Positions 4,138-48,819 of a stretch of 64,000 nucleotides of DNA are shown here, piece by piece. The stretch lies in the IMG/VR virus record IMGVR_UViG_3300036770_001342, positions 42,894 to 106,893 of that record; one strand, given 5' to 3'. How positions within the stretch are numbered: position 1 is the stretch's first letter; every line of letters starts with the position of its first letter. The notes beneath the pieces are model-generated. The model ran no database searches. It saw only the letters and a list, made by a program, of their open reading frames with translations, and was not told the DNA's origin. Made by a program: the position numbers and the translations under genes. This stretch comes from a virus.

Positions 4138-4145
4138 TATTTATC
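4138..4145 (-). promoter_or_regulatory. Late promoter (GATAAATA)
   Basis: Overlaps the stop of the upstream gene and lies just upstream of the 4110 start. Confidence 0.6.
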
Positions 4146-5085
4146 TTATAGTTACAATCGCCTGGACTACACCCATTTCTGCATCTGTTTTAGTTTCTAA
4201 TGCGCGACCTATAGTATTAAACGCTGTGGCCTCGCCGTCTTTTGCTGCTCTAGCACAGCCATTGCCTGCGCTAACTAAACGCTGACCTTTTACTACTGGA
4301 CCTACAACATTAACATTGACGCGACCAGATACAGCAACCGGCGGGTGAGTATTATCGTCACCTGCACCTGCGTTCATTAGATATCCTGCTGTATGTGATA
4401 TAACGCCGAAAATATCTTCGCTTAATTCATATTTGACCGCAGTAATTTCTTTACTACCGCCCAATTGGACAACTGTACCTGCATCATATGTTTGATCTGC
4501 TTCAAAACGTTCAGCAAGGTCAGCATAAGTTGATTGCAATCTTGATCCTGCAGTTAATGTCCAGTTACCAGTAAGCGAACCTGCAGTACCTGCAGATCCT
4601 GTAGTGATAACTTGTGTAGTAAGATTGCCTATGTTAGCATTTGTGATATTAGCAGTCTGTATGGTTGCAGTACCTGCGATGCTAATTGTCTGACATGCAA
4701 TATTAGGAACTGATAAGTTATTCGTAATAATTGCATTGTTTGCGCTAATCGTACCGATGACCGTTACGCCACCGAATGTCGTGTTACCGCTAGCACTAGT
4801 AGTTGCTAATGATAACCAATTAGCAGCAATTGCTTCACCATCTTCCGGGCAAACATATAACGTTGAATTATTAGTGTTGTACCACAATTGACCGCGCAAC
4901 GGGTTAGCAGGAGGTTCGGTACTTGCAAAATTTTCTGTTAGATGTACAAAGTTCGTGTCTAAAACTTGTCCATAACCAGCGTAGTTTCTACCAGGTAGCC
5001 CTAATGAGGTACTATCTGTGTTAATTTGACCGTCAGCGATAGTTGTTAATACTTGTCCATCGCTTTTTACAATCGTATATGCCAT
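4141..5085 (-). CDS. Short fibre/virion protein with C-terminal autocleaving intramolecular chaperone (Peptidase G2-like)
   Basis: N-terminal GRNYAGYG...LTENFA...P..GQLWY module. C-terminal YADLAERF...GTVV..GG...GVIS...GRV.V pattern of tail-fibre chaperone domains. Confidence 0.65.
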   Translation of the reverse strand: MAYTIVKSDGQVLTTIADGQINTDSTSLGLPGRNYAGYGQVLDTNFVHLTENFASTEPPANPLRGQLWYNTNNSTLYVCPEDGEAIAANWLSLATTSASGNTTFGGVTVIGTISANNAIITNNLSVPNIACQTISIAGTATIQTANITNANIGNLTTQVITTGSAGTAGSLTGNWTLTAGSRLQSTYADLAERFEADQTYDAGTVVQLGGSKEITAVKYELSEDIFGVISHTAGYLMNAGAGDDNTHPPVAVSGRVNVNVVGPVVKGQRLVSAGNGCARAAKDGEATAFNTIGRALETKTDAEMGVVQAIVTIR

Positions 5086-25212: not shown

Positions 25213-28200
25213 TTATGCTATTTGTAATTCGTTTGGTGTCAATGCAGGGATAACTAAAATATCGTTTGCTGTTGCTGCGTTAACAAATATTTCAAAAGGA
25301 GCACACTTAATTTCATATAGTGTTCCAAACGGTTCGTTTGGATCATTTGGAACTAATACTGCCGAACTAATTAAACTACCTAATTGATTGTGTAGGTAGG
25401 CGCTTAATTCTGAGAAGAAGAAGGTGTCTCCAAAACTCCAATTATTAATATCAAAATACTGGTTCATACTTGTTAATACTGCACTGCGTATTTCACTGTC
25501 ACTTGCTGTCGTTGTGTTGTTTTTAATAACTTTAATTGTTCCTCTTAAAGCCTGTGCTGCTTTAGGACCAAATAAAGGTTTAAACACTACACTATTTAAT
25601 ACCACACTATCACTCAACATTTTGTAATCATTTACTTTACTATAACTTGCTGACAACTCAGCAATAGTAGGTCTTGATGGTTCTGGTATTGTATTAGTAG
25701 TATCTTGAACATAATTTGAATAGGCTGTATAATATGCTTGAGTTACAACATATAAATCAACTATGTTTGTTGTAGCAGGATCAATACGTGTTGTGTTATT
25801 GCTATTGTGTCTGTATTGAAAACTAAAACCTTGTCTACCATACTTAATTGAATATTCTGGTTGAGGAGTTAATACATAGAAAGGTGTTCTAACTGTAGTG
25901 TCTTGAACAGTTTTATAAAAAATATCATCACTAAAAGCGTAGAACAGTTGACCCACAGGATAATCGTACTTTACTACTTCAATTTGATCCATTGTACCAT
26001 ATTGATAAATGACATCTACTGATGGAACAATTTCTAAACGTGTTAGATTTGCTGCATCCTGAACTGTTCTAAAAAATACATATTTTCCTATATTGCTACT
26101 ACCATTTTCAACACCTGTTAGTGTGCTGAAAAAATCTGGATTTAATATCAATTGTTTATTATTTGTGTCTGTTGCGCTGACTTCTACCTCAAAGTCATTT
26201 ACATAACCATCGCTTTCTACTGTTTGACCTAATATATTAACTTTGTAATCGCGCCCTAAAGCACTAGTAGAACTTGGTGCAGTATTAATACCTAAAACAT
26301 TAATGAAATCTTGTAGTATTTTACCGCTAAATGGATCGTACACAACTTGATTTAAATTGTATGTAAATCTAGTATCGCTAACACTTCCAAAATAATAACG
26401 TAATGAACGTACTAGTATTTGATATCTGCGATTACCTAAACTAGTAAATTGAACAAACCAATTATTATCATTATGTGGACGTATAGTCCATCTGTCCTGA
26501 TTAACTAGTAGTGAATTATTAAAGACCAAACTAAAATCTTGTTCTAATTCCATTTTAACAATGGCTTCTTGTATATTTGAAATACTAATTGAATTATCAA
26601 ATACAGGAATAATTTGTGATAGTAAACAACCACTAGGCACAAATCCATTTAATGTTACTGGTCCATTACCGTTACTAAAATTACCTTCACCATTATTACT
26701 ACCATCGCCTATTACATTTAATACAGTAGTCCAAAGCGTTGTTGGATTAGTGCCCGGCAAACCTAATACTAATCTATTATTATTATCAAAGTAATAACCA
26801 GTTGGAGCAGTAAATTGTAGCATTGCTCCTTTTGTAATATATTTGGTATTAGTAGTTGAGAAAATACCTATCTGTGTTGGTACTCTTATAGTTAAATCTA
26901 CATTATAAAAATAACCATTTTCACTTGTAGCATCTACTGTGCTTGTTTGCCAGTATACTGCTGAAGAGCCAGTGCTAGGTGTAGTAAATCTTTTGTACCA
27001 ACTACCTTCAGTAGTGCTTGTTTGATTTATATAATATTGATTAGCACGATTTAACGCTAATGTTCCGGCAAGTGTATCTGTAAAGAAATTGATGACATCA
27101 CTATTATTATTAATAGTTAAATCTAAAACAATATTATCATTGTTTTCCCAAATTGCACCGTCATCACCAAAACTGTTGATACTGCTATATTTGCCTGTTG
27201 GATCAAGCAAGTCTAAATTCTTTGATACACCAATCGAACTGCGATTGATCGCTTTTGATTTTATAATTGAACTGTATAATGTATATGGGAAATTATTATA
27301 ATCTTCACCATTAACCATACGATTCTGTGTATAGTAACGTGTTGGTGCGCGTTGTTTGATGCTCGGCAAACTTTCGCGTGATTGTGCATTGCTTACTGGT
27401 TGTGTTAACTGTAATCCTAAAGTTAATGTTTCAGCACGACCTTCTCTTGTAATATAAGTAAATGCAACTGTAATGCCTTGCATTTCATTTGGATCAATTG
27501 TATAAGTTAATCCGTTACTTGAACGAACATATGCTCTAAATGTTCCAACAGGAATGTTACTAAACACGCCGTCACCAAAATTATAAGTGACTTGATCATT
27601 AAATCTTGAACTTACACTAAAAATACTTTTTTGTGATGTTTCTGTTTGCAAATAAGCATTAGCATAAACATTGTCAACTTGATTCCATAATATGCGTGTG
27701 TTGTTATTTGCATTTAACTGATATAACCATGTATCTGTATTGTTTATGCCTTGAATATTAATAGGTACTGCTTGATTAGCAATTTGTTGTTCTAACACAA
27801 AATCAAAATTGTTTAATGAGCCCTGTTTAAAATAAAAGAAGTAACCAGTATTTGCACTACCAAAACCTAATCTGTCGTTTCTATACAACATATTAAATTT
27901 ACCAGTAGGTGCCGGTGGCAATTCATATAATGCATCGCTGTCTACACTGGATACACTTACTAATTCAAAATTCATGCTAATACCATCAACTGATGTGCTG
28001 AATGGTACTATTGGTAAACTGTTTGCAGGTATTTGTATTGCGTACTCTGCTGTTGCTACGCCTAATAAGTCGCTTACGTTGCCCGGTCTACCTACACGCT
28101 GACTACTAACTAAAGCAGCATTAATAATTGTATTATACTGTTCAAACCAATTTGGGTTTGCTGGGTCATTCCATAATATAATAGCATTACTTAAATTGAC

Positions 28201-28602
28201 ACCGTTAAAATCTGTTATGTTTTGTGTAGTTTGTATGCTGACTATTTTTAGCATACCTTCAGCACAGAGATTGCGTTTTGGTGTGTAACTGACTAGATTT
28301 GCTAGTTTGATAACGCTATCTCTACGCTCTGCTGTGTCGATAAAGTTCTCGCGGGCGTTTAAGTCATTTCTAAATGCAAGACCTTGACCCATGAATGCCA
28401 TAACGTCAAGTAGTGCGATAAATTCTGACGATTCGATATAATCGTTATATGTTTCTGGGTAGTAAACACGCAGGTAGTCTATGAAACTCTTGCGTAATGT
28501 TTCATAGTCATAACTTCTAAAGTCGGCTTCGCGGAAAGTCTGGTAGATTGTTTTCCAATCATTTACACCAAATAATGCCGCTTGTCTAGAACTTGTAGCC
28601 AT
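25213..28602 (-). CDS. gp6: Baseplate wedge subunit, T4 gp6-like
   Basis: SYDYETLRKSFIDYL...DYIESSE..ALLD...ENFIDTAERRDSV..LA..VSY.P; FGDG.F..IP.G; ES...IK..AP..Y.TQNRMV..EDY. Adjacent to gp25. Confidence 0.85.
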   Translation of the reverse strand: MATSSRQAALFGVNDWKTIYQTFREADFRSYDYETLRKSFIDYLRVYYPETYNDYIESSEFIALLDVMAFMGQGLAFRNDLNARENFIDTAERRDSVIKLANLVSYTPKRNLCAEGMLKIVSIQTTQNITDFNGVNLSNAIILWNDPANPNWFEQYNTIINAALVSSQRVGRPGNVSDLLGVATAEYAIQIPANSLPIVPFSTSVDGISMNFELVSVSSVDSDALYELPPAPTGKFNMLYRNDRLGFGSANTGYFFYFKQGSLNNFDFVLEQQIANQAVPINIQGINNTDTWLYQLNANNNTRILWNQVDNVYANAYLQTETSQKSIFSVSSRFNDQVTYNFGDGVFSNIPVGTFRAYVRSSNGLTYTIDPNEMQGITVAFTYITREGRAETLTLGLQLTQPVSNAQSRESLPSIKQRAPTRYYTQNRMVNGEDYNNFPYTLYSSIIKSKAINRSSIGVSKNLDLLDPTGKYSSINSFGDDGAIWENNDNIVLDLTINNNSDVINFFTDTLAGTLALNRANQYYINQTSTTEGSWYKRFTTPSTGSSAVYWQTSTVDATSENGYFYNVDLTIRVPTQIGIFSTTNTKYITKGAMLQFTAPTGYYFDNNNRLVLGLPGTNPTTLWTTVLNVIGDGSNNGEGNFSNGNGPVTLNGFVPSGCLLSQIIPVFDNSISISNIQEAIVKMELEQDFSLVFNNSLLVNQDRWTIRPHNDNNWFVQFTSLGNRRYQILVRSLRYYFGSVSDTRFTYNLNQVVYDPFSGKILQDFINVLGINTAPSSTSALGRDYKVNILGQTVESDGYVNDFEVEVSATDTNNKQLILNPDFFSTLTGVENGSSNIGKYVFFRTVQDAANLTRLEIVPSVDVIYQYGTMDQIEVVKYDYPVGQLFYAFSDDIFYKTVQDTTVRTPFYVLTPQPEYSIKYGRQGFSFQYRHNSNNTTRIDPATTNIVDLYVVTQAYYTAYSNYVQDTTNTIPEPSRPTIAELSASYSKVNDYKMLSDSVVLNSVVFKPLFGPKAAQALRGTIKVIKNNTTTASDSEIRSAVLTSMNQYFDINNWSFGDTFFFSELSAYLHNQLGSLISSAVLVPNDPNEPFGTLYEIKCAPFEIFVNAATANDILVIPALTPNELQIA

Positions 28603-38060: not shown

Positions 38061-39077
38061 ATGGCAAATTTATTTAAAAAAGCAGCAGCCTTCACCGACA
38101 TACATTTTGGACTTAAGAGCAACAGTCTTGAACATAATCAAGACTGTAGCGATTTTGTTGATTGGTTCATAGAAACTGCTAAAGCAGAGGGATGTGAAAC
38201 TTGTCTTTTCTTAGGTGATTACAATCACCATCGTGCAAGTATCAATATCCATACTATGCAATATGGCTTACGTGCCCTTGAAAAACTAAACGATGCATTT
38301 GAGAAAGTGTATTTCATTCCAGGCAATCACGATCTTTATTATCGTGATCGTAGAGATATTCATAGTGTAGAGTGGGCAAAGCATTTGCCTAATGTACATA
38401 TTGTCAATGACTGGTTTAATGAGGGCGATGTTGTTATTGCTCCTTGGTTAGTAGGAGATGATTATAAGAAGTTAGCCAAGATGCATGGCAAGTATATGTT
38501 TGGTCATCTTGAACTTCCACGATTTTATATGAACGCCATGGTTGAAATGCCTGATCATGGTGAAATTAATGACGAACACGTTAGTGGTTTTGAACAAGTG
38601 TTCAGCGGCCATTTTCATAAACGTCAAGCACGTAAAAACATTTGGTACATGGGCAATGCTTTCCCACATAACTATGCTGACGCAAGTGATGATGCTAGAG
38701 GCATGATGATACTTGAATGGGGTTGTGACCCAGTATTCAAGTCATGGCCACAACAACCTGTATTCAGAGTTTACAAACTAAGTGATGTACTAGAAAATCC
38801 AGAGGGTTTGCTATTGCCTCAAGCAAGTGTTAGAGTACATCTTGATATTGATATTAGTTACGAAGAAGCAAACTACATCAAAGAAACATTGATACCAAAA
38901 CATCAACTACGCGAAATGTCATTGATACCAATCAAACTAGAACAACATCAATTGGATCTTGCTCCGGGTGAGTTGAAATTTGAAAGTGTTGATCAGATAA
39001 TAACCGATCAAATCAGCAACATCGAAAGTCAATTTTATGATCCTAAAATGTTGTTAGAGATTTATAGGAATTTATGA
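38061..39077 (+). CDS. gp47: Recombination endonuclease subunit (Mre11/SbcD-like), T4 gp47
   Basis: Metallophosphoesterase motifs DIH, LGD, GNHD, GHL, GHFH. Confidence 0.9.
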   Translation: MANLFKKAAAFTDIHFGLKSNSLEHNQDCSDFVDWFIETAKAEGCETCLFLGDYNHHRASINIHTMQYGLRALEKLNDAFEKVYFIPGNHDLYYRDRRDIHSVEWAKHLPNVHIVNDWFNEGDVVIAPWLVGDDYKKLAKMHGKYMFGHLELPRFYMNAMVEMPDHGEINDEHVSGFEQVFSGHFHKRQARKNIWYMGNAFPHNYADASDDARGMMILEWGCDPVFKSWPQQPVFRVYKLSDVLENPEGLLLPQASVRVHLDIDISYEEANYIKETLIPKHQLREMSLIPIKLEQHQLDLAPGELKFESVDQIITDQISNIESQFYDPKMLLEIYRNL

Positions 39078-40837
39078 TAGTACTAAAGAATATTACATTA
39101 CGAAACTTTTTGAGTATTGGTCAAGTTACACAGGCTGTAAACTTTGATAGCAAAGAACTCACATTGATTCTTGGTGAGAACCTTGATCTTGGTGGTGATG
39201 GCGCACGTAATGGTACTGGCAAGACTACACTAATTCAAGGTCTTTCATATGTACTATTCGGTACACCAATCAACAACATTCGTAAAGATAATCTAGTCAA
39301 TCGAACAAATGGAAAGAGTATGATGGTTACGCTAGAGTTTAGCGTAAACGGTGTTGACTACAAAATCGAACGTGGTCGCAAGCCAAACATACTCAAGTTT
39401 TATGTAGATAATAAAGAAGAAGAATGTGTCAACGATGCTCAAGGTGAAAACAAAGAAACACAAGAGCATATTGAACGTGCCATAAACATGACACCCGACA
39501 TGTTCAAACATATCGTTGCATTGAATACTTATAGCGAACCATTTTTGGCTATGAAAGCCAATGATCAGCGTAATGTTATTGAACAGTTACTTGGCATTAC
39601 GTTACTAAGTGAAAAAGCAGACCTCATCAAAGAACAAATCAAAAGTACAAAAGATAAAATTACCGAAGAAGAATATAAAAACAAAGCAATCGAAGAAGCA
39701 AATAAACGTATACAAGAACAAATTGATAATCTAAAGCGTAGAGCAAAGTTATGGGATAGTAAACACGATGAAGATTTACAAAAACTACGTGATGATTTAG
39801 AGGAACTACAAAAGATTGATATTGATCTTGAGTTGCAAGGTCATAAAGACTTTACCCTTTATAATCAGCGGAAAAAAGATCACGCAGACTTAGATAAAAG
39901 TATCAATAGAACCGAAGAAGATATTGCTAAAGAAGAAAAATCACTAAAGAAAATTGTAAAAGAATTAGAACAACTACAAGACCACAAGTGTTATGCTTGT
40001 GGTCAAGATTTCCATGATGAAAAACATACTTCAGTATTAAAAGAAAAAGAAAAGTCAAAGAAAGAGTGCGAAAAGAACATCAAGGAATATAGTGAATTAT
40101 TAGTAGAACTAAAGAAAACAAAAGAAGAATTAGGCCCTATCGGCAAGCAACCTAAACTATATTACGATACGGAACAAGAGGCGTTCCAGCATCGTAGTTT
40201 AGTTGATGGTTTAGTGAAGTCGATAGACGAAAAAACCAACGATGTGAACCCGTATAACGATCAAATAAGTGAAATGGAAAACCAAGCACTTCAAACTATA
40301 AGTTTTGATAAAATCAACGAGTACACCAGACTTGTTGATCATCAAAAGTTCTTGCTTGACTTATTGACAAGCAAGGATAGTTTTGTGCGTAAGAAAATTA
40401 TCGACCAAAACCTCAGTTATCTCAACGCAAGACTCACACACTACTTGGACAAGATAGGTCTGCCTCATCAAGTTATATTTTTGAATGACCTATCGGTTGA
40501 GATAACTGAACTTGGACGCGAACTAGATTTTGACAATCTAAGTCGCGGTGAACGTAATAGATTGATTCTTGGCTTGAGTTTTGCTTTCCGTGATGTATGG
40601 GAAAGTTTGTATCGCCCAATCAATACATTGTTCATCGACGAATTGATTGACAGTGGGTTAGATAGCATAGGTGTTGAAAATGCTATGGCCATATTGAAAG
40701 ATATGAGCCGCAATCGCAGTAAGAGTGTATGGCTTGTAAGCCATAGAGAAGAATTAGCAGGACGTGTACCTAGCGTATTGAAAGTAGTGAAAGAAAACGG
40801 ATTTACTACGTATAATACTAGCCACGATTTAGCATAA
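39074..40837 (+). CDS. gp46: Recombination ATPase subunit (Rad50/SbcC-like), T4 gp46
   Basis: NFLS, Walker A NGTGKTT, coiled coil with CYAC zinc hook, signature LSRGE, Walker B LFIDE, H-loop VSH. Confidence 0.92.
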   Translation: MIVLKNITLRNFLSIGQVTQAVNFDSKELTLILGENLDLGGDGARNGTGKTTLIQGLSYVLFGTPINNIRKDNLVNRTNGKSMMVTLEFSVNGVDYKIERGRKPNILKFYVDNKEEECVNDAQGENKETQEHIERAINMTPDMFKHIVALNTYSEPFLAMKANDQRNVIEQLLGITLLSEKADLIKEQIKSTKDKITEEEYKNKAIEEANKRIQEQIDNLKRRAKLWDSKHDEDLQKLRDDLEELQKIDIDLELQGHKDFTLYNQRKKDHADLDKSINRTEEDIAKEEKSLKKIVKELEQLQDHKCYACGQDFHDEKHTSVLKEKEKSKKECEKNIKEYSELLVELKKTKEELGPIGKQPKLYYDTEQEAFQHRSLVDGLVKSIDEKTNDVNPYNDQISEMENQALQTISFDKINEYTRLVDHQKFLLDLLTSKDSFVRKKIIDQNLSYLNARLTHYLDKIGLPHQVIFLNDLSVEITELGRELDFDNLSRGERNRLILGLSFAFRDVWESLYRPINTLFIDELIDSGLDSIGVENAMAILKDMSRNRSKSVWLVSHREELAGRVPSVLKVVKENGFTTYNTSHDLA

Positions 40838-40874: not shown

Positions 40875-41441
40875 ATGCCTAGTCCACAAAAACAAAAAGG
40901 TTCGAGTTGGGAGCGTGAGGTAGCACGATACCTCAGTGAAATTTATCAAGAAAGTTTTATACGTGCTCCAGGAAGTGGAGCATATGTAGGCGGTAAAAAT
41001 AAAGTGCGTACTCAAATTTTACATGAAGGGCAGATACGCAGTTTTAAGGGAGACATTGTTCCAGGACAAAATTTTCCAAAATTTAACGCAGAGTGTAAAA
41101 GTTATGCTGATTTTCCTTTTCATTTAGTACTTACAGGACATTGTAAAGTATTAGATGGATGGTTAGATCAAATGATGGATGTTAGCGAACCGGGTGATTT
41201 AAATATTCTTTTCATGAAATTTAATCGCAAGGGTAGTTTCGTCTGTGTGCAAACTAACTTAACATGGATCACAGATCAATTTTTATATTATACAAGTGAA
41301 AAACACAAAGATTGGCTCATTATTGAGTTCGAACATTTTTTCAAACTCAACAAAGAATTACTTAAAACATATTGTTCAGGCTCATCAGACATAAAGTCTA
41401 ACTCCCCACAATTTAATACTTTAATTAATACAAACAATTAG
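40875..41441 (+). CDS. Holliday junction resolvase (PD-(D/E)xK, Hjc-like)
   Basis: KQKGSSWEREVA...RAPGSGA...GDI...AECK motif order. Confidence 0.7.
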   Translation: MPSPQKQKGSSWEREVARYLSEIYQESFIRAPGSGAYVGGKNKVRTQILHEGQIRSFKGDIVPGQNFPKFNAECKSYADFPFHLVLTGHCKVLDGWLDQMMDVSEPGDLNILFMKFNRKGSFVCVQTNLTWITDQFLYYTSEKHKDWLIIEFEHFFKLNKELLKTYCSGSSDIKSNSPQFNTLINTNN

Positions 41442-41444
41442 TTT

Positions 41445-41854
41445 GATAGGGGCAGCCCTATCCTCCTTGAGCAAGTCTAGTACACTAGTCACCTGCGGAT
41501 CTGGAGTAAAGATATACATTTGTATATCGTATACCGAGTGGGCAATCGACAGGTTTGCGAACCCACAATGAGTACATATCTTATTTCGTTTTGCGGATAT
41601 GTAACATGCGTTATAGTAGATGATGAGTCTACAACTACAGTCCATAAACTTTACAGTATAACCGGTAGCGTATAACATCACAACAGGGTAGTTATACGGG
41701 AACAAACGACATGGGTGAAGGGCAGGCAAGTCCAACCTTTGGTAGTGCTGAGATAGCACTACCATGGATTCAAAGCGGCAAGTAATCTAAATCCATATAA
41801 AAATTTAAATGACTGAGTGAGCGAAGCGAACGAAGTGTTGTCCGAAAGGACAAC
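41445..41854 (+). ncRNA. Unidentified large structured non-coding element (candidate ncRNA and/or replication origin)
   Basis: About 410 nt without a credible ORF in a gene-dense genome, visibly more GC-rich than its flanks, with about ten stems readable by eye. Strand tentative (GAAA loop on +). Confidence 0.6.
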
Positions 41855-41855
41855 G

Positions 41856-42086
41856 TTAAAAATAAGGAAGATTAGTTTTCTTTACCGTTTCCATGTGATC
41901 TTCAATTATTTCATTAATATATTTTCTTTCGGCATTGGACATATTTAAAATGTCTTGGTAACTTGCTCCACCACGAAGATGCCATGCCATGGATAATGCT
42001 GATTTTTTAATTCCCCCGATTTCTGCTTCCATATTTTTAACTAACTTCTCAACCTCATCGGGGGTTGCGTTTAGAAGTCTTAGCCG
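41856..42086 (-). CDS. gp51-like / tail assembly chaperone C-terminal ORF (own ATG at 42032, or reached by -1 frameshift)
   Basis: Manual translation: RLRLLNATPDEVEKLVKN-MEAEIGGIKKSALSMAWHLRGGASYQDILNMSNAERKYINEIIEDHMETVKKTNLPYF*. The S..DI.NM...ER helix pattern is typical of gp51/gpT-type chaperone parts. Confidence 0.7.
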   Translation of the reverse strand, partial: RLRLLNATPDEVEKLVKNMEAEIGGIKKSALSMAWHLRGGASYQDILNMSNAERKYINEIIEDHMETVKKTNLPYF

Positions 42087-42904
42087 AAAAAATCGCTAGC
42101 GTTTAGTGTAAATGGTTGTTTATATTGATGTGAGCAAGCAGCACATTGTATATCCAAAGGTTGAAGTTCTGTGCTAGCCTTTAATCTTGTGTTATAATCT
42201 CTTATAGTTTCATACATATTGGCATCACAGTTGCGTAGAAAATCTAGGATGTAGTCTTTTTGATCTACTGCTCCGTTTGGAGTTTCTACATACTCAATTG
42301 ATTTAGCAATTAATTGCATTGTTATGTCAGTAATACTTTTAATTGCTACTTGTGTAGCAGCAATTTTTTGCTTTTCATCTTCAATCTTTTCAATTTCAGC
42401 AAAACTTCTTTGAATATCAAATTGACCCAATGCTGCTTCATTCATTTCAGCATAGGTCATAGGTTTAAACTTAATTGATAGGTTATTAACATCTAGTTTT
42501 TGATCATAATTGCCCATTTTTAATGTTTGTAATACATTAACTAGATTGACACCGTATGTGTTAGTTTCTTTACATGAAGGACAACTTGTAGTGACATCTA
42601 AAGTGTTGTCGCCACCGGCTGCTCTTATACCAATCAGAACTGCGTCTAAGTCACTTGTAGTTAATCTCCATGGATCTTTAATATTAGGCAAACAACTTTT
42701 AATGACTTCTGCTACAGCGTTACCGTTAAACAATGCGTCTGGTGTTCTTAACGTAATTTCATCGATTGCTGTCATAGGATAAACCGGCAGTTCGCCGTTT
42801 TCAGGCATCGACAATACGTCAGGTGCATATCCCTTACCTTTGCTAGGCAATGTAATAAACACAGCGGGTCTACGAAAGTATTGTTTTAGCGGATTATTGT
42901 CCAT
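42080..42904 (-). CDS. gp26: Baseplate hub assembly / tail chaperone, T4 gp26-like
   Basis: ITLPSKG...V.PMTA.DE..L...DLDAVLIGIRAA...CPSC...CAAC...DFFG*. Divergent from the tape measure gene. Confidence 0.75.
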   Translation of the reverse strand: MDNNPLKQYFRRPAVFITLPSKGKGYAPDVLSMPENGELPVYPMTAIDEITLRTPDALFNGNAVAEVIKSCLPNIKDPWRLTTSDLDAVLIGIRAAGGDNTLDVTTSCPSCKETNTYGVNLVNVLQTLKMGNYDQKLDVNNLSIKFKPMTYAEMNEAALGQFDIQRSFAEIEKIEDEKQKIAATQVAIKSITDITMQLIAKSIEYVETPNGAVDQKDYILDFLRNCDANMYETIRDYNTRLKASTELQPLDIQCAACSHQYKQPFTLNASDFFG

Positions 42905-47016: not shown

Positions 47017-48819
47017 ATGCCATTTAAAAAGAAATTTGTTAACAAATCGGGTATTTCTAGCCCTATATCAGGTGCCAATAGCAATAGCGGCGCTTGGAAT
47101 GGTGGTGCAGGACAGAATGTAAACCCAACAGGTGGCTGGAATAATAATGATTTTGGTTATAAAAATTATATGTCACGTTTGCCGGAAGTATATACCGGAC
47201 ATCCAAACAGAATTGAGCGTTATAATCAATATGAAATGATGGATGTTGATGCTGAAATTAACGCTTGCTTAGACATTATCAGCGAATTCAGTACACAGAA
47301 AAACGAACACAACAAAACACCATTTAATCTAGAATTTAAAATTGATCCCACACCGCACGAAATTAATATACTAAAAGAGCAGTTACAACAGTGGTGTAAA
47401 TTAAACGAATTTGATCAGAGAATTTTTAAAATATTCCGTAACGTCATCAAGTATGGCGATCAAGTATTTGTACGCGATCCAGAAAACTTTAAGTTATATT
47501 GGGTCGATATGGTTAAAGTTATTAAAGTTATTGTTAACGAAAGTGAAGGTAAACTTCCAGAACAATATGTACTAAAAGATTTAAACATTAATCTACAAAA
47601 TTTATCAGTTGCACAGAAAACTAATACAGATTTTGCTGCTAACCCAGCAACTGGATTAGGCGGTACTGGTGGCGGTACAAATACACCTTATACAGTACCT
47701 GCAATGCCATATAATACGACTGGATCACGTTTCACATTAGGTCAAAGTGAAAGTGCTATAGACGCGAAACACATAGTTCATTTAAGTTTAACTGAAGGGC
47801 TTGACCGCTTTTGGCCTTTTGGTCAGTCTATATTAGAAAACATCTTTAAAGTATACAAGCAGAAAGAATTGCTTGAAGATGCGGTATTGATCTATCGTGT
47901 ACAACGTGCACCAGAACGCAGACTATTCAAAATTGATGTTGGTAACATGCCAAGTCACATGGCTATGGCTTATGTAGAACGTATTAAAAATGAAATACAC
48001 CAACGCAGAATTCCAAGTGTTTATGGTGGTCAATCAATCGTAGATGCTACCTATAATCCACTATCAATGAACGAAGATTACTTCTTCCCAGTCACCGCAG
48101 ACGGTCGCGGATCAAGTGTAGAAGTTATGCCTGGTGGACAGAATTTAGGCGAAATTGATGACTTGCGTTACTTTAATAACAGATTGGCACGTGGTTTACG
48201 TGTACCAAGCAGTTATCTACCAACTGGACCAGACGATAGCCAAACACCATTAAGTGATGGTCGTGTTGGTACAGCAATGATTCAAGAATATCGCTTTAAT
48301 CAATATTGCGAAAGATTACAAAGTTATATTGCAACTAAACTAGACGAAGAATTTAAGTTATTCTTACGTTGGAGAGGCTTCAATATAGATAGTGGATTGT
48401 TTCAATTAGAATTTAATCCACCGCAAAACTTTGCCGCCTATCGCCAAAGTGAATTAGATACAGCAAGAGTAAACGTATTCAGTTCAATTGAACAATTGCC
48501 ATATATCAGTAAGCGTTTTGCTATGGAACGTTTCTTAGGTCTTACAGAAGATGAAATCAATAAGAACGAAAAATTATGGCGTGAAGAGAACGGCAAAGAA
48601 GTACTTGAAGAGCCATCAGGTAGCGATCTACGCAGTGTAGGCGTCAGTGTTAGCGACATTGAATCGGATACAGAAACTGGTGAACAAATGGCAGAACCAG
48701 AAGCGGGAACAGAACAAGGTGCTGAAGTTGCAGGTCCCGTTGCTGGAGGAGCAGGTGGCGCACCCGGTGGCACAGCAGCACCAACAGCGCCAGCCACTCC
48801 CGCAAGTCCTCCAGCATAA
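47017..48819 (+). CDS. gp20: Portal protein, T4 gp20-like
   Basis: LLEDAVLIYRVQRAPERRLFKIDVGNMP, SMNEDYFFP...GRGS.VE.MPGGQNLGEIDD..YF...L.R.LRVP.S. Confidence 0.95.
   Translation: MPFKKKFVNKSGISSPISGANSNSGAWNGGAGQNVNPTGGWNNNDFGYKNYMSRLPEVYTGHPNRIERYNQYEMMDVDAEINACLDIISEFSTQKNEHNKTPFNLEFKIDPTPHEINILKEQLQQWCKLNEFDQRIFKIFRNVIKYGDQVFVRDPENFKLYWVDMVKVIKVIVNESEGKLPEQYVLKDLNINLQNLSVAQKTNTDFAANPATGLGGTGGGTNTPYTVPAMPYNTTGSRFTLGQSESAIDAKHIVHLSLTEGLDRFWPFGQSILENIFKVYKQKELLEDAVLIYRVQRAPERRLFKIDVGNMPSHMAMAYVERIKNEIHQRRIPSVYGGQSIVDATYNPLSMNEDYFFPVTADGRGSSVEVMPGGQNLGEIDDLRYFNNRLARGLRVPSSYLPTGPDDSQTPLSDGRVGTAMIQEYRFNQYCERLQSYIATKLDEEFKLFLRWRGFNIDSGLFQLEFNPPQNFAAYRQSELDTARVNVFSSIEQLPYISKRFAMERFLGLTEDEINKNEKLWREENGKEVLEEPSGSDLRSVGVSVSDIESDTETGEQMAEPEAGTEQGAEVAGPVAGGAGGAPGGTAAPTAPATPASPPA

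Follow-up and report, generated by a model that had tools for sequence, protein, structure and literature searches.

Large ornate RNAs of the GOLLD and ROOL kind are often found on phages and prophages and have been studied by cryo-electron microscopy (PMC12286853), the Polynucleobacter-1 motif (RF01718) was reported from Burkholderiales and from metagenomes of fresh water and estuaries (Weinberg 2010, PMC2864571), and a covariation survey of IMG/VR yielded 8,495 structured-RNA candidates of 29-151 nt, for which no function was given (Fremin et al. 2023, PMC10690425). Here we describe an RNA element in a 64,000-nt stretch of viral DNA (positions 42,894 to 106,893 of IMG/VR record IMGVR_UViG_3300036770_001342), referred to as the window throughout. 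Positions 41445-41797 of the window, plus strand, hold the single-copy gene of a noncoding RNA that is large, compactly folded and of a new class, and this class is confined to a clade of uncultured jumbo T4-like phages; no description of the RNA was found in the literature. An earlier annotation made without database searches (the sequence-only reading) had proposed a large structured phage RNA, not described before, that shares its strand with the gp47, gp46 and nuclease genes, and this proposal is borne out by synteny, covariation, two pseudoknots, an excess of G·U pairs and the lack of an open reading frame (ORF). That the stretch encodes a genuine structured RNA is in our view almost certain.

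Relatives of the element in IMG/VR were collected by two routes, a search with the nuclease protein and a scan for the pattern of the invariant hairpin P10. The protein search returned 80 loci, 79 of which show a homolog of it immediately after the nuclease gene, while the remaining locus stops too early to show it; the pattern scan added at least 120 further loci, and every one listed carries the element. Among the matches listed, to which the following counts refer, the element is homologous in all 199 usable loci, 127 distinct copies are full-length, the gp26-like gene lies downstream on the opposite strand wherever there is enough flank (178 of 178 loci), and the nuclease gene ends no more than 120 nt upstream of the RNA in 167 of 171 loci. 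The element thus sits behind a small nuclease gene that follows gp47 and gp46, ahead of the convergent block, and it is about 350 nt in size. In the window, the gap begins 3 nt past the nuclease stop codon (TAG 41439-41441), as had been noted from the sequence. With about 200 syntenic loci, conservation in relatives, on which the sequence-only reading had made its proposal depend, is well established.

One locus, L196, retains the RNA element although a GIY-YIG-like ORF stands in for the PDDEXK gene, which shows the element to be independent of the PDDEXK nuclease. This ORF of 150 aa (L196:2147-2599, counted on the reverse complement of the stored locus so that the RNA is on the plus strand) carries the motif GFLYRITEISTGMEYVGKK and lies between gp46 and the RNA. 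Because of this replacement, the slot ahead of the RNA appears to be occupied by mobile endonuclease genes, and a role of the RNA as a guide for the PDDEXK nuclease is ruled out, since the RNA persists with another upstream gene.

A covariance model of the RNA core (R1) finds one copy in the window's own record, a 106.9-kb entry with a CheckV completeness estimate of 31%, and one copy apiece in three complete genomes (352, 525 and 367 kb). The cultured phages closest in gp46 are jumbo phages, namely PA5oct (51% identity), followed by Phosso, Atu_ph07 and Rak2-like phages. Searches at the nucleotide level in 50,697 phage records revealed no relative of the element, a profile hidden Markov model detected no homolog of it where PA5oct is syntenic, and neither R1 nor any Rfam family gave a match in the syntenic regions of PA5oct, Phosso, Atu_ph07, fHe-Yen9-04 and XaC1. 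In cultured jumbo relatives, gaps of 0.7-1.5 kb that are unannotated or hold tiny ORFs only adjoin a resolvase gene near gp46 and the baseplate hub (PA5oct, L202:7017-8531; fHe-Yen9-04, L325:5660-6389; XaC1, L326:5641-6434; Phosso, L323:6410-7425), and these gaps may hold other large RNAs.

Covariation is the decisive evidence for the structure, as folding energy alone is insufficient. The sequence-only reading had expected the region to fold better than dinucleotide shuffles, which it does, yet only modestly so (z = -2.4 on the plus strand and -2.7 on the minus strand for single-sequence folding). From 56 sequences, RNAalifold derived 60 pairs, and compensatory changes are seen in 35 of these. 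The named structure described below, including both pseudoknots, was scored on an alignment of 56 sequences (A1; alignments were made with MAFFT L-INS-i), where 96.5% of the cells hold standard pairs, compared to 81.5% with shuffled 3' letters and 30-43% with the partner slid by 1-3 columns. The covariation score on the same alignment amounts to 0.426, against 0.156 for shuffled and 0.041-0.081 for slid partners, and 47 of the 75 pairs show changes on both sides, so that the covariation anticipated by the sequence-only reading is present. None of 500 shuffles attained the observed value on any of five measures. Moreover, compensatory swaps occur in divergent members even in the otherwise 'invariant' helices P4 and P5a.

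Mutual information with average product correction, calculated on the alignment of 127 sequences with no structural prior, recovered the helices together with two extra long-range pairings, and because both cross P4, both are pseudoknots. In pseudoknot B, UCGUU in the P6 loop pairs with a downstream AACGA through five consecutive pairs that are 98-100% standard, show three pair types each and stand near the top of the mutual-information ranking. In pseudoknot A, UCC on the internal strand of P7 pairs with GGA directly behind P8; here the pair 41641:41701 occurs as UA (84), CG (16), AU (13) and GC (9), and the adjoining pairs swap CG to UA. The supported helices also reveal the strand of the RNA. 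On the plus strand, G·U-type cells number 419 and A·C-type cells 43, a ratio of about 10:1, and A·C-type cells are those that would become G·U in a minus-strand RNA; the excess therefore identifies the plus strand, i.e., that of gp47, gp46 and the nuclease, as the RNA.

The region does not behave as a coding sequence in any frame, since no reading frame is kept open across the homologs, several of which have a longest open stretch of fewer than 60 codons. In the window, a minus-strand ORF of 114 aa (41421-41765) overlaps with the element, but it is closed in most relatives, and its product has no Pfam match; it was dropped as a gene because the frame is not conserved.

The fold consists of the 5' hairpin H1, a P1/P2 domain, the hairpin H3, a four-way junction formed by P4-P7, the hairpin P8, a 3' strand tied back through the two pseudoknots, and a 3' module around P10; positions are collected in the table below together with those of the neighboring genes. 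All nine stems listed by the sequence-only reading are present in the window, and seven of them recur in relatives with compensatory changes. Among these seven, GATAGGG/CCCTATC corresponds to H1. MAFFT misaligned this hairpin, but all 95 distinct upstream segments fold into one with a stem of 5 bp or more, which in every case stops right at CUCC, and the stems themselves are of many kinds. The others are GATATAC/GTATATC (H3), GTGGG/CCCAC (P5), TACATATC/GATATGTA (P6), CGTATAAC/GTTATACG (P8), CTAG/CTAG, which forms the tip of the variable P2 hairpin, and GTAGA/TCTAC, the base of a variable arm. An eighth stem, TGGTAGTGCT/AGCACTACCA, is P10, which is invariant across the 127 copies except for two compensatory swaps at the loop-closing pair and two G·U changes. 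The last, TGGATT/AATCCA, is present in the window and its GG/CC part recurs, but the remainder is not conserved, in line with a P11 closing stem that is conserved in part only.

Regarding the multiloop closures suggested earlier, CTCC/GGAG is real and forms P1, paired in 100% of the cells and invariant apart from a C-G to U-A swap in three sequences; the enclosed P2 has changes on both sides in four of its five pairs. The proposed TCCAT/ATGGG closure, in contrast, does not hold, as the UCC in question pairs with GGA in pseudoknot A instead. A duplication of GTATAAC, put forward as two copies competing for one partner, exists in the window and in close relatives, but is not conserved, and the competition was rejected. 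In the core junction, cells are 98-100% paired with two to four pair types per position, and the window's copy scores 128.8 bits with R1. Invariant unpaired nucleotides are numerous as well, e.g., ACUACAGUCC(C)AUAAACUUUACAG, GCAAUCG, GCGAAC and UGCGUU. The invariant CCUCCUUGA (41462-41470) equals the anti-Shine-Dalgarno end of 16S rRNA (CCUCCUUA) and pairs in P1 with an invariant GGAG resembling a Shine-Dalgarno sequence (41499-41508), where GGAUC precedes GGAG. No start codon is conserved after this GGAG, and the likeness could be due to chance or could represent a mimic of the duplex between Shine-Dalgarno and anti-Shine-Dalgarno sequences.

Table. Positions in the window of the RNA, its structural parts and the flanking features
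Feature	Position	Strand	Remarks
Gene for gp47-like phosphoesterase	38061-39077	+	
Gene for gp46-like SMC/AAA nuclease subunit	39074-40837	+	
PDDEXK_15 endonuclease gene	40875-41441	+	Pfam E = 8.6e-23; context, not required by the RNA
RNA element, within the gene-free stretch	41445-41797	+	
Whole structured RNA	41445-41797	+	about 350 nt; conservation fades past box 2
H1, 5' hairpin	41445-41462	+	sequence varies, structure kept
P1 around the variable P2 hairpin	41463-41506	+	CUCC 41463-66 / GGAG 41503-06
H3, hypervariable hairpin	41511-41528	+	7/7 pairs changed on both sides
Core four-way junction	41532-41667	+	P4 (41532-36/41663-67) closes P5+P5a, P6 and P7
P5+P5a	41538-66	+	
P6	41568-41607	+	
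P7	41610-15/41657-62	+	encloses arm H7a plus a conserved strand, ACUACAGUCC(C)AUAAACUUUACAG
Pseudoknot B, 5' strand	41586-41590	+	UCGUU, P6 loop
Pseudoknot A, 5' strand	41641-41643	+	UCC, P7 internal strand
P8 hairpin	41669-41698	+	10/11 pairs changed on both sides
3' strands of the pseudoknots	41699-41709	+	A: GGA 41699-701; B: AACGA 41705-09
P9 region	41710-41739	+	less well defined hairpin, from per-sequence folds; loop holds box 1 (GGGCAGGCAAG, 41720-41730)
P10, invariant 10-bp hairpin	41740-41764	+	UGGUAGUGCU-loop-AGCACUACCA
P11 region	41765-41797	+	invariant AUGG, then loop CUUCAAAGCGGCAA with box 2 (GCGGCAAG, 41775-41782)
GAGCGAnAGCGAA-type hairpin, then terminator-like hairpin GUUGUCC-GAAA-GGACAAC	41812-41855	+	likely 3' end of the transcription unit
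58-aa ORF	41856-42032	-	
gp26-like baseplate protein gene	42080-42904	-	convergent

The two loops that flank P10 share one box of 5-9 nt with the consensus GGCAAK, one before and one after the hairpin. Here mutual information picked out pairs of columns in which the two letters stay the same instead of complementing each other; position 41722 with 41775, for instance, reads GG 89 times and UU 20 times. At least eight kinds of box variants occur (GGCAUG, AGCAGA, AGCAAU, AGCAUG, GAUAAU, CGGUAA, AGUAAU, GCAAGUA), and the two boxes tend to change together between phages. A non-standard 5-mer in box 2 was seen in 28 sequences, 16 of which have the same 5-mer in their own box-1 region, while the background of the matched 5-mers in other sequences is 2-15% for 14 of these 16 and 48% for GGCAU (two sequences). 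Inside the RNA no complementary segment covaries with the boxes, which points to a box partner in trans. The P2 loop and the P7 5' strand were considered as partners and discarded, as neither covaries with the boxes, and a target-site duplication around P10 was rejected because repeated joint changes at a fixed position are unlike a single insertion.

Concerning the ends of the transcript, the stretch 41812-41855 has the look of a terminator module for the rightward unit. In DNA letters it comprises a GAGCGAAGCGAACGAAG segment followed by the GTTGTCC-GAAA-GGACAAC hairpin. A GARCGAA-type motif or GAGCGAnAGCGAA-type hairpin is present at the downstream site in 109 of 127 relatives, and a second downstream hairpin, present in the relatives listed, is followed by UUUAAAAG (plus strand; TTTAAAAG in DNA). 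A simple terminator scan reported nothing at the downstream hairpins. On the 5' side, a conserved TAAAAAT(T/G)nGTT stands directly before H1 and includes the nuclease stop codon in many copies; in the window (41433-41444) it has the weaker form CAAACAATTAGTTT. It may be a promoter element, a site of processing or a piece of the RNA itself. Elsewhere in the window, the 7-mer ATAAATA, which often takes the form GATAAATA, shows an enrichment of about 50-fold in the 70 nt ahead of genes, and (G)ATAAATA is found before 10 of the 31 long ORFs (e.g., 4141-5085, 25213-28602 and 47017-48819); this motif looks like the late promoter of T4-type phages. A canonical late promoter ahead of the RNA was rejected, as the motif is missing there. 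Co-transcription of the RNA with the gp47-gp46-nuclease operon, as the sequence-only reading had it, is plausible; no late promoter is recognizable in front, and a conserved terminator-like hairpin follows 40-100 nt behind.

As to what the RNA does, we tentatively favor a trans-acting RNA that would serve as a rigid scaffold presenting the twin boxes to a partner, a reading to which we give not quite an even chance. The RNA would be made as the terminal part of the rightward gp47-gp46-endonuclease unit, or from an unrecognized promoter just upstream, and transcription would end at the conserved hairpins 40-100 nt downstream. Acting in trans, the scaffold would then engage two copies of one partner through its two identical boxes, and probably through P10 as well, where the partner may be a protein dimer or a nucleic acid on which the same site occurs twice. 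With such a two-copy partner, the boxes would be expected to stay identical to each other while drifting between phages. Furthermore, the dense invariant unpaired nucleotides, the two pseudoknots and the single-copy, fixed position argue for a precise fold that acts in trans rather than for a terminator or an mRNA stabilizer. Several points weigh against the scaffold. P9 and P11, the supposed presenters of the boxes, are weakly defined, no box partner was identified, and the identity of the boxes could stem from a cause other than a shared partner. In addition, no promoter was recognized before the RNA, where the late motif is missing, and a ribozyme or a ligand-binding RNA would account just as well for the many invariant unpaired nucleotides.

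A ribozyme, self-cleaving or otherwise catalytic, would have its active site in the pseudoknotted core and could serve, e.g., in processing the 3' end of the operon transcript; the size of the RNA found here, its two pseudoknots and its many invariant unpaired nucleotides recall large ribozymes. In T4-like phages, homing-endonuclease-like genes often accompany introns, and genes of this type occupy the slot ahead of the RNA. Nevertheless, we regard catalysis as unlikely, since the ribozyme and intron models of Rfam give no match even when hits with E up to 10 are admitted, the RNA interrupts no gene (gp46 is intact compared to PA5oct, and the downstream gene is convergent), the helix order seems by inspection unlike the P3/P7 topology of group I, and the twin boxes would be left unexplained. 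A cis-acting element in the 3' untranslated region, shielding the gp47-gp46-nuclease mRNA from 3' exonucleases or insulating convergent early and late units, would fit the start 3 nt past a stop codon, the site at the convergence point of two gene blocks and the conserved terminator-like hairpins that come after the RNA. Such an element, however, needs stable helices, not two pseudoknots, dozens of invariant unpaired bases and identical boxes that covary, and the RNA persists after replacement of the upstream gene in L196, so that we consider this just as unlikely as catalysis. The twin boxes might instead be guide-like loops, two identical ones of 5-9 nt set in a fixed geometry by the knotted core and the invariant P10, that base-pair with two copies of one target, bridging them or directing an enzyme to phage or host nucleic acid; this we consider rather unlikely, and if true it would amount to a new kind of programmable phage RNA.

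The sequence-only reading had also raised a replication primer, i.e., a structured origin transcript comparable to ColE1 RNA II or the T4 origin transcripts that would stay hybridized to its template and prime DNA synthesis. Transcripts act as primers at T4 origins, the element adjoins recombination and resolvase genes, short GCGAA-type repeats and hairpins lie just downstream, and in phage Phosso an RNase HI gene follows the analogous gap. On the other hand, GC skew shows no obvious switch around the element (a local profile only, hence weak evidence), neither iterons nor an AT-rich unwinding element came to light, and priming does not need the tertiary fold found here, which together make an origin transcript improbable. 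Protein operators are often inverted repeats, and P10 is a perfect, invariant 10-bp inverted repeat, as would suit an element acting as DNA, be it a protein-binding palindrome or a recombination or packaging site. Yet the strand-specific excess of G·U-type over A·C-type cells makes sense only for RNA, and the long-range covariation of the pseudoknots has no known DNA reading; we thus deem a DNA-level element very improbable. The scaffold with twin boxes accordingly remains our tentative preference among these readings.

Large RNAs with complex tertiary folds are rare and, to our knowledge, nearly every such class whose function has been solved is a ribozyme, the core of a ribonucleoprotein or a guide RNA. 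The class described here, single-copy and at a fixed position, has many unpaired positions that are more constrained than its protein-coding neighbors, and it is confined to giant phages, the biology of which is poorly known. The identical boxes that change together provide an experimental handle, which could reveal a new RNA-based function in phage infection.

In comparison with known families, the novelty claimed by the sequence-only reading is supported, as Rfam 15 gave no confident match. At gathering thresholds, none of its families, including GOLLD, ROOL, OLE, raiA, HEARO, RNase P, group I and II introns and riboswitches, matched anywhere in the window, and at E up to 10 the segment 41300-42000 and six diverse relatives gave chance-level matches only, the best being RAGATH-33 on the minus strand with 19.7 bits against a cut-off of 120.4. 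ARAGORN likewise found no tRNA or tmRNA gene in the window. Polynucleobacter-1 (RF01718) did not match at E up to 10 in the segment 41300-42000 or in the six diverse members. Fragments of this RNA may be among the candidates of the IMG/VR covariation survey (PMC10690425).

The group I introns of T4-like phages resemble the element in their similar size, pseudoknotted core and adjoining homing-endonuclease-like gene, but differ from it in that the RNA here lies within no gene, has no match to RF00028 (E up to 10) and, by inspection, has a helix order that does not seem to correspond to group I P3-P9. A group I intron with a split host gene was rejected, as gp46 aligns over residues 1-580 of 587 with PA5oct gp46 and the downstream gene is on the other strand. 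Membership in the GOLLD/ROOL kind, as suggested by the sequence-only reading, was not supported (no Rfam match at E up to 10). Like the RNA described here, GOLLD (RF01998) and ROOL (RF03087) are large, intricate, phage-encoded noncoding RNAs with strong covariation that look protein-free and whose function is not known. They are, however, about 580-800 nt long, compared to about 350 nt here, and they lie near tRNAs, whereas this RNA occupies a fixed, single-copy site behind recombination genes.
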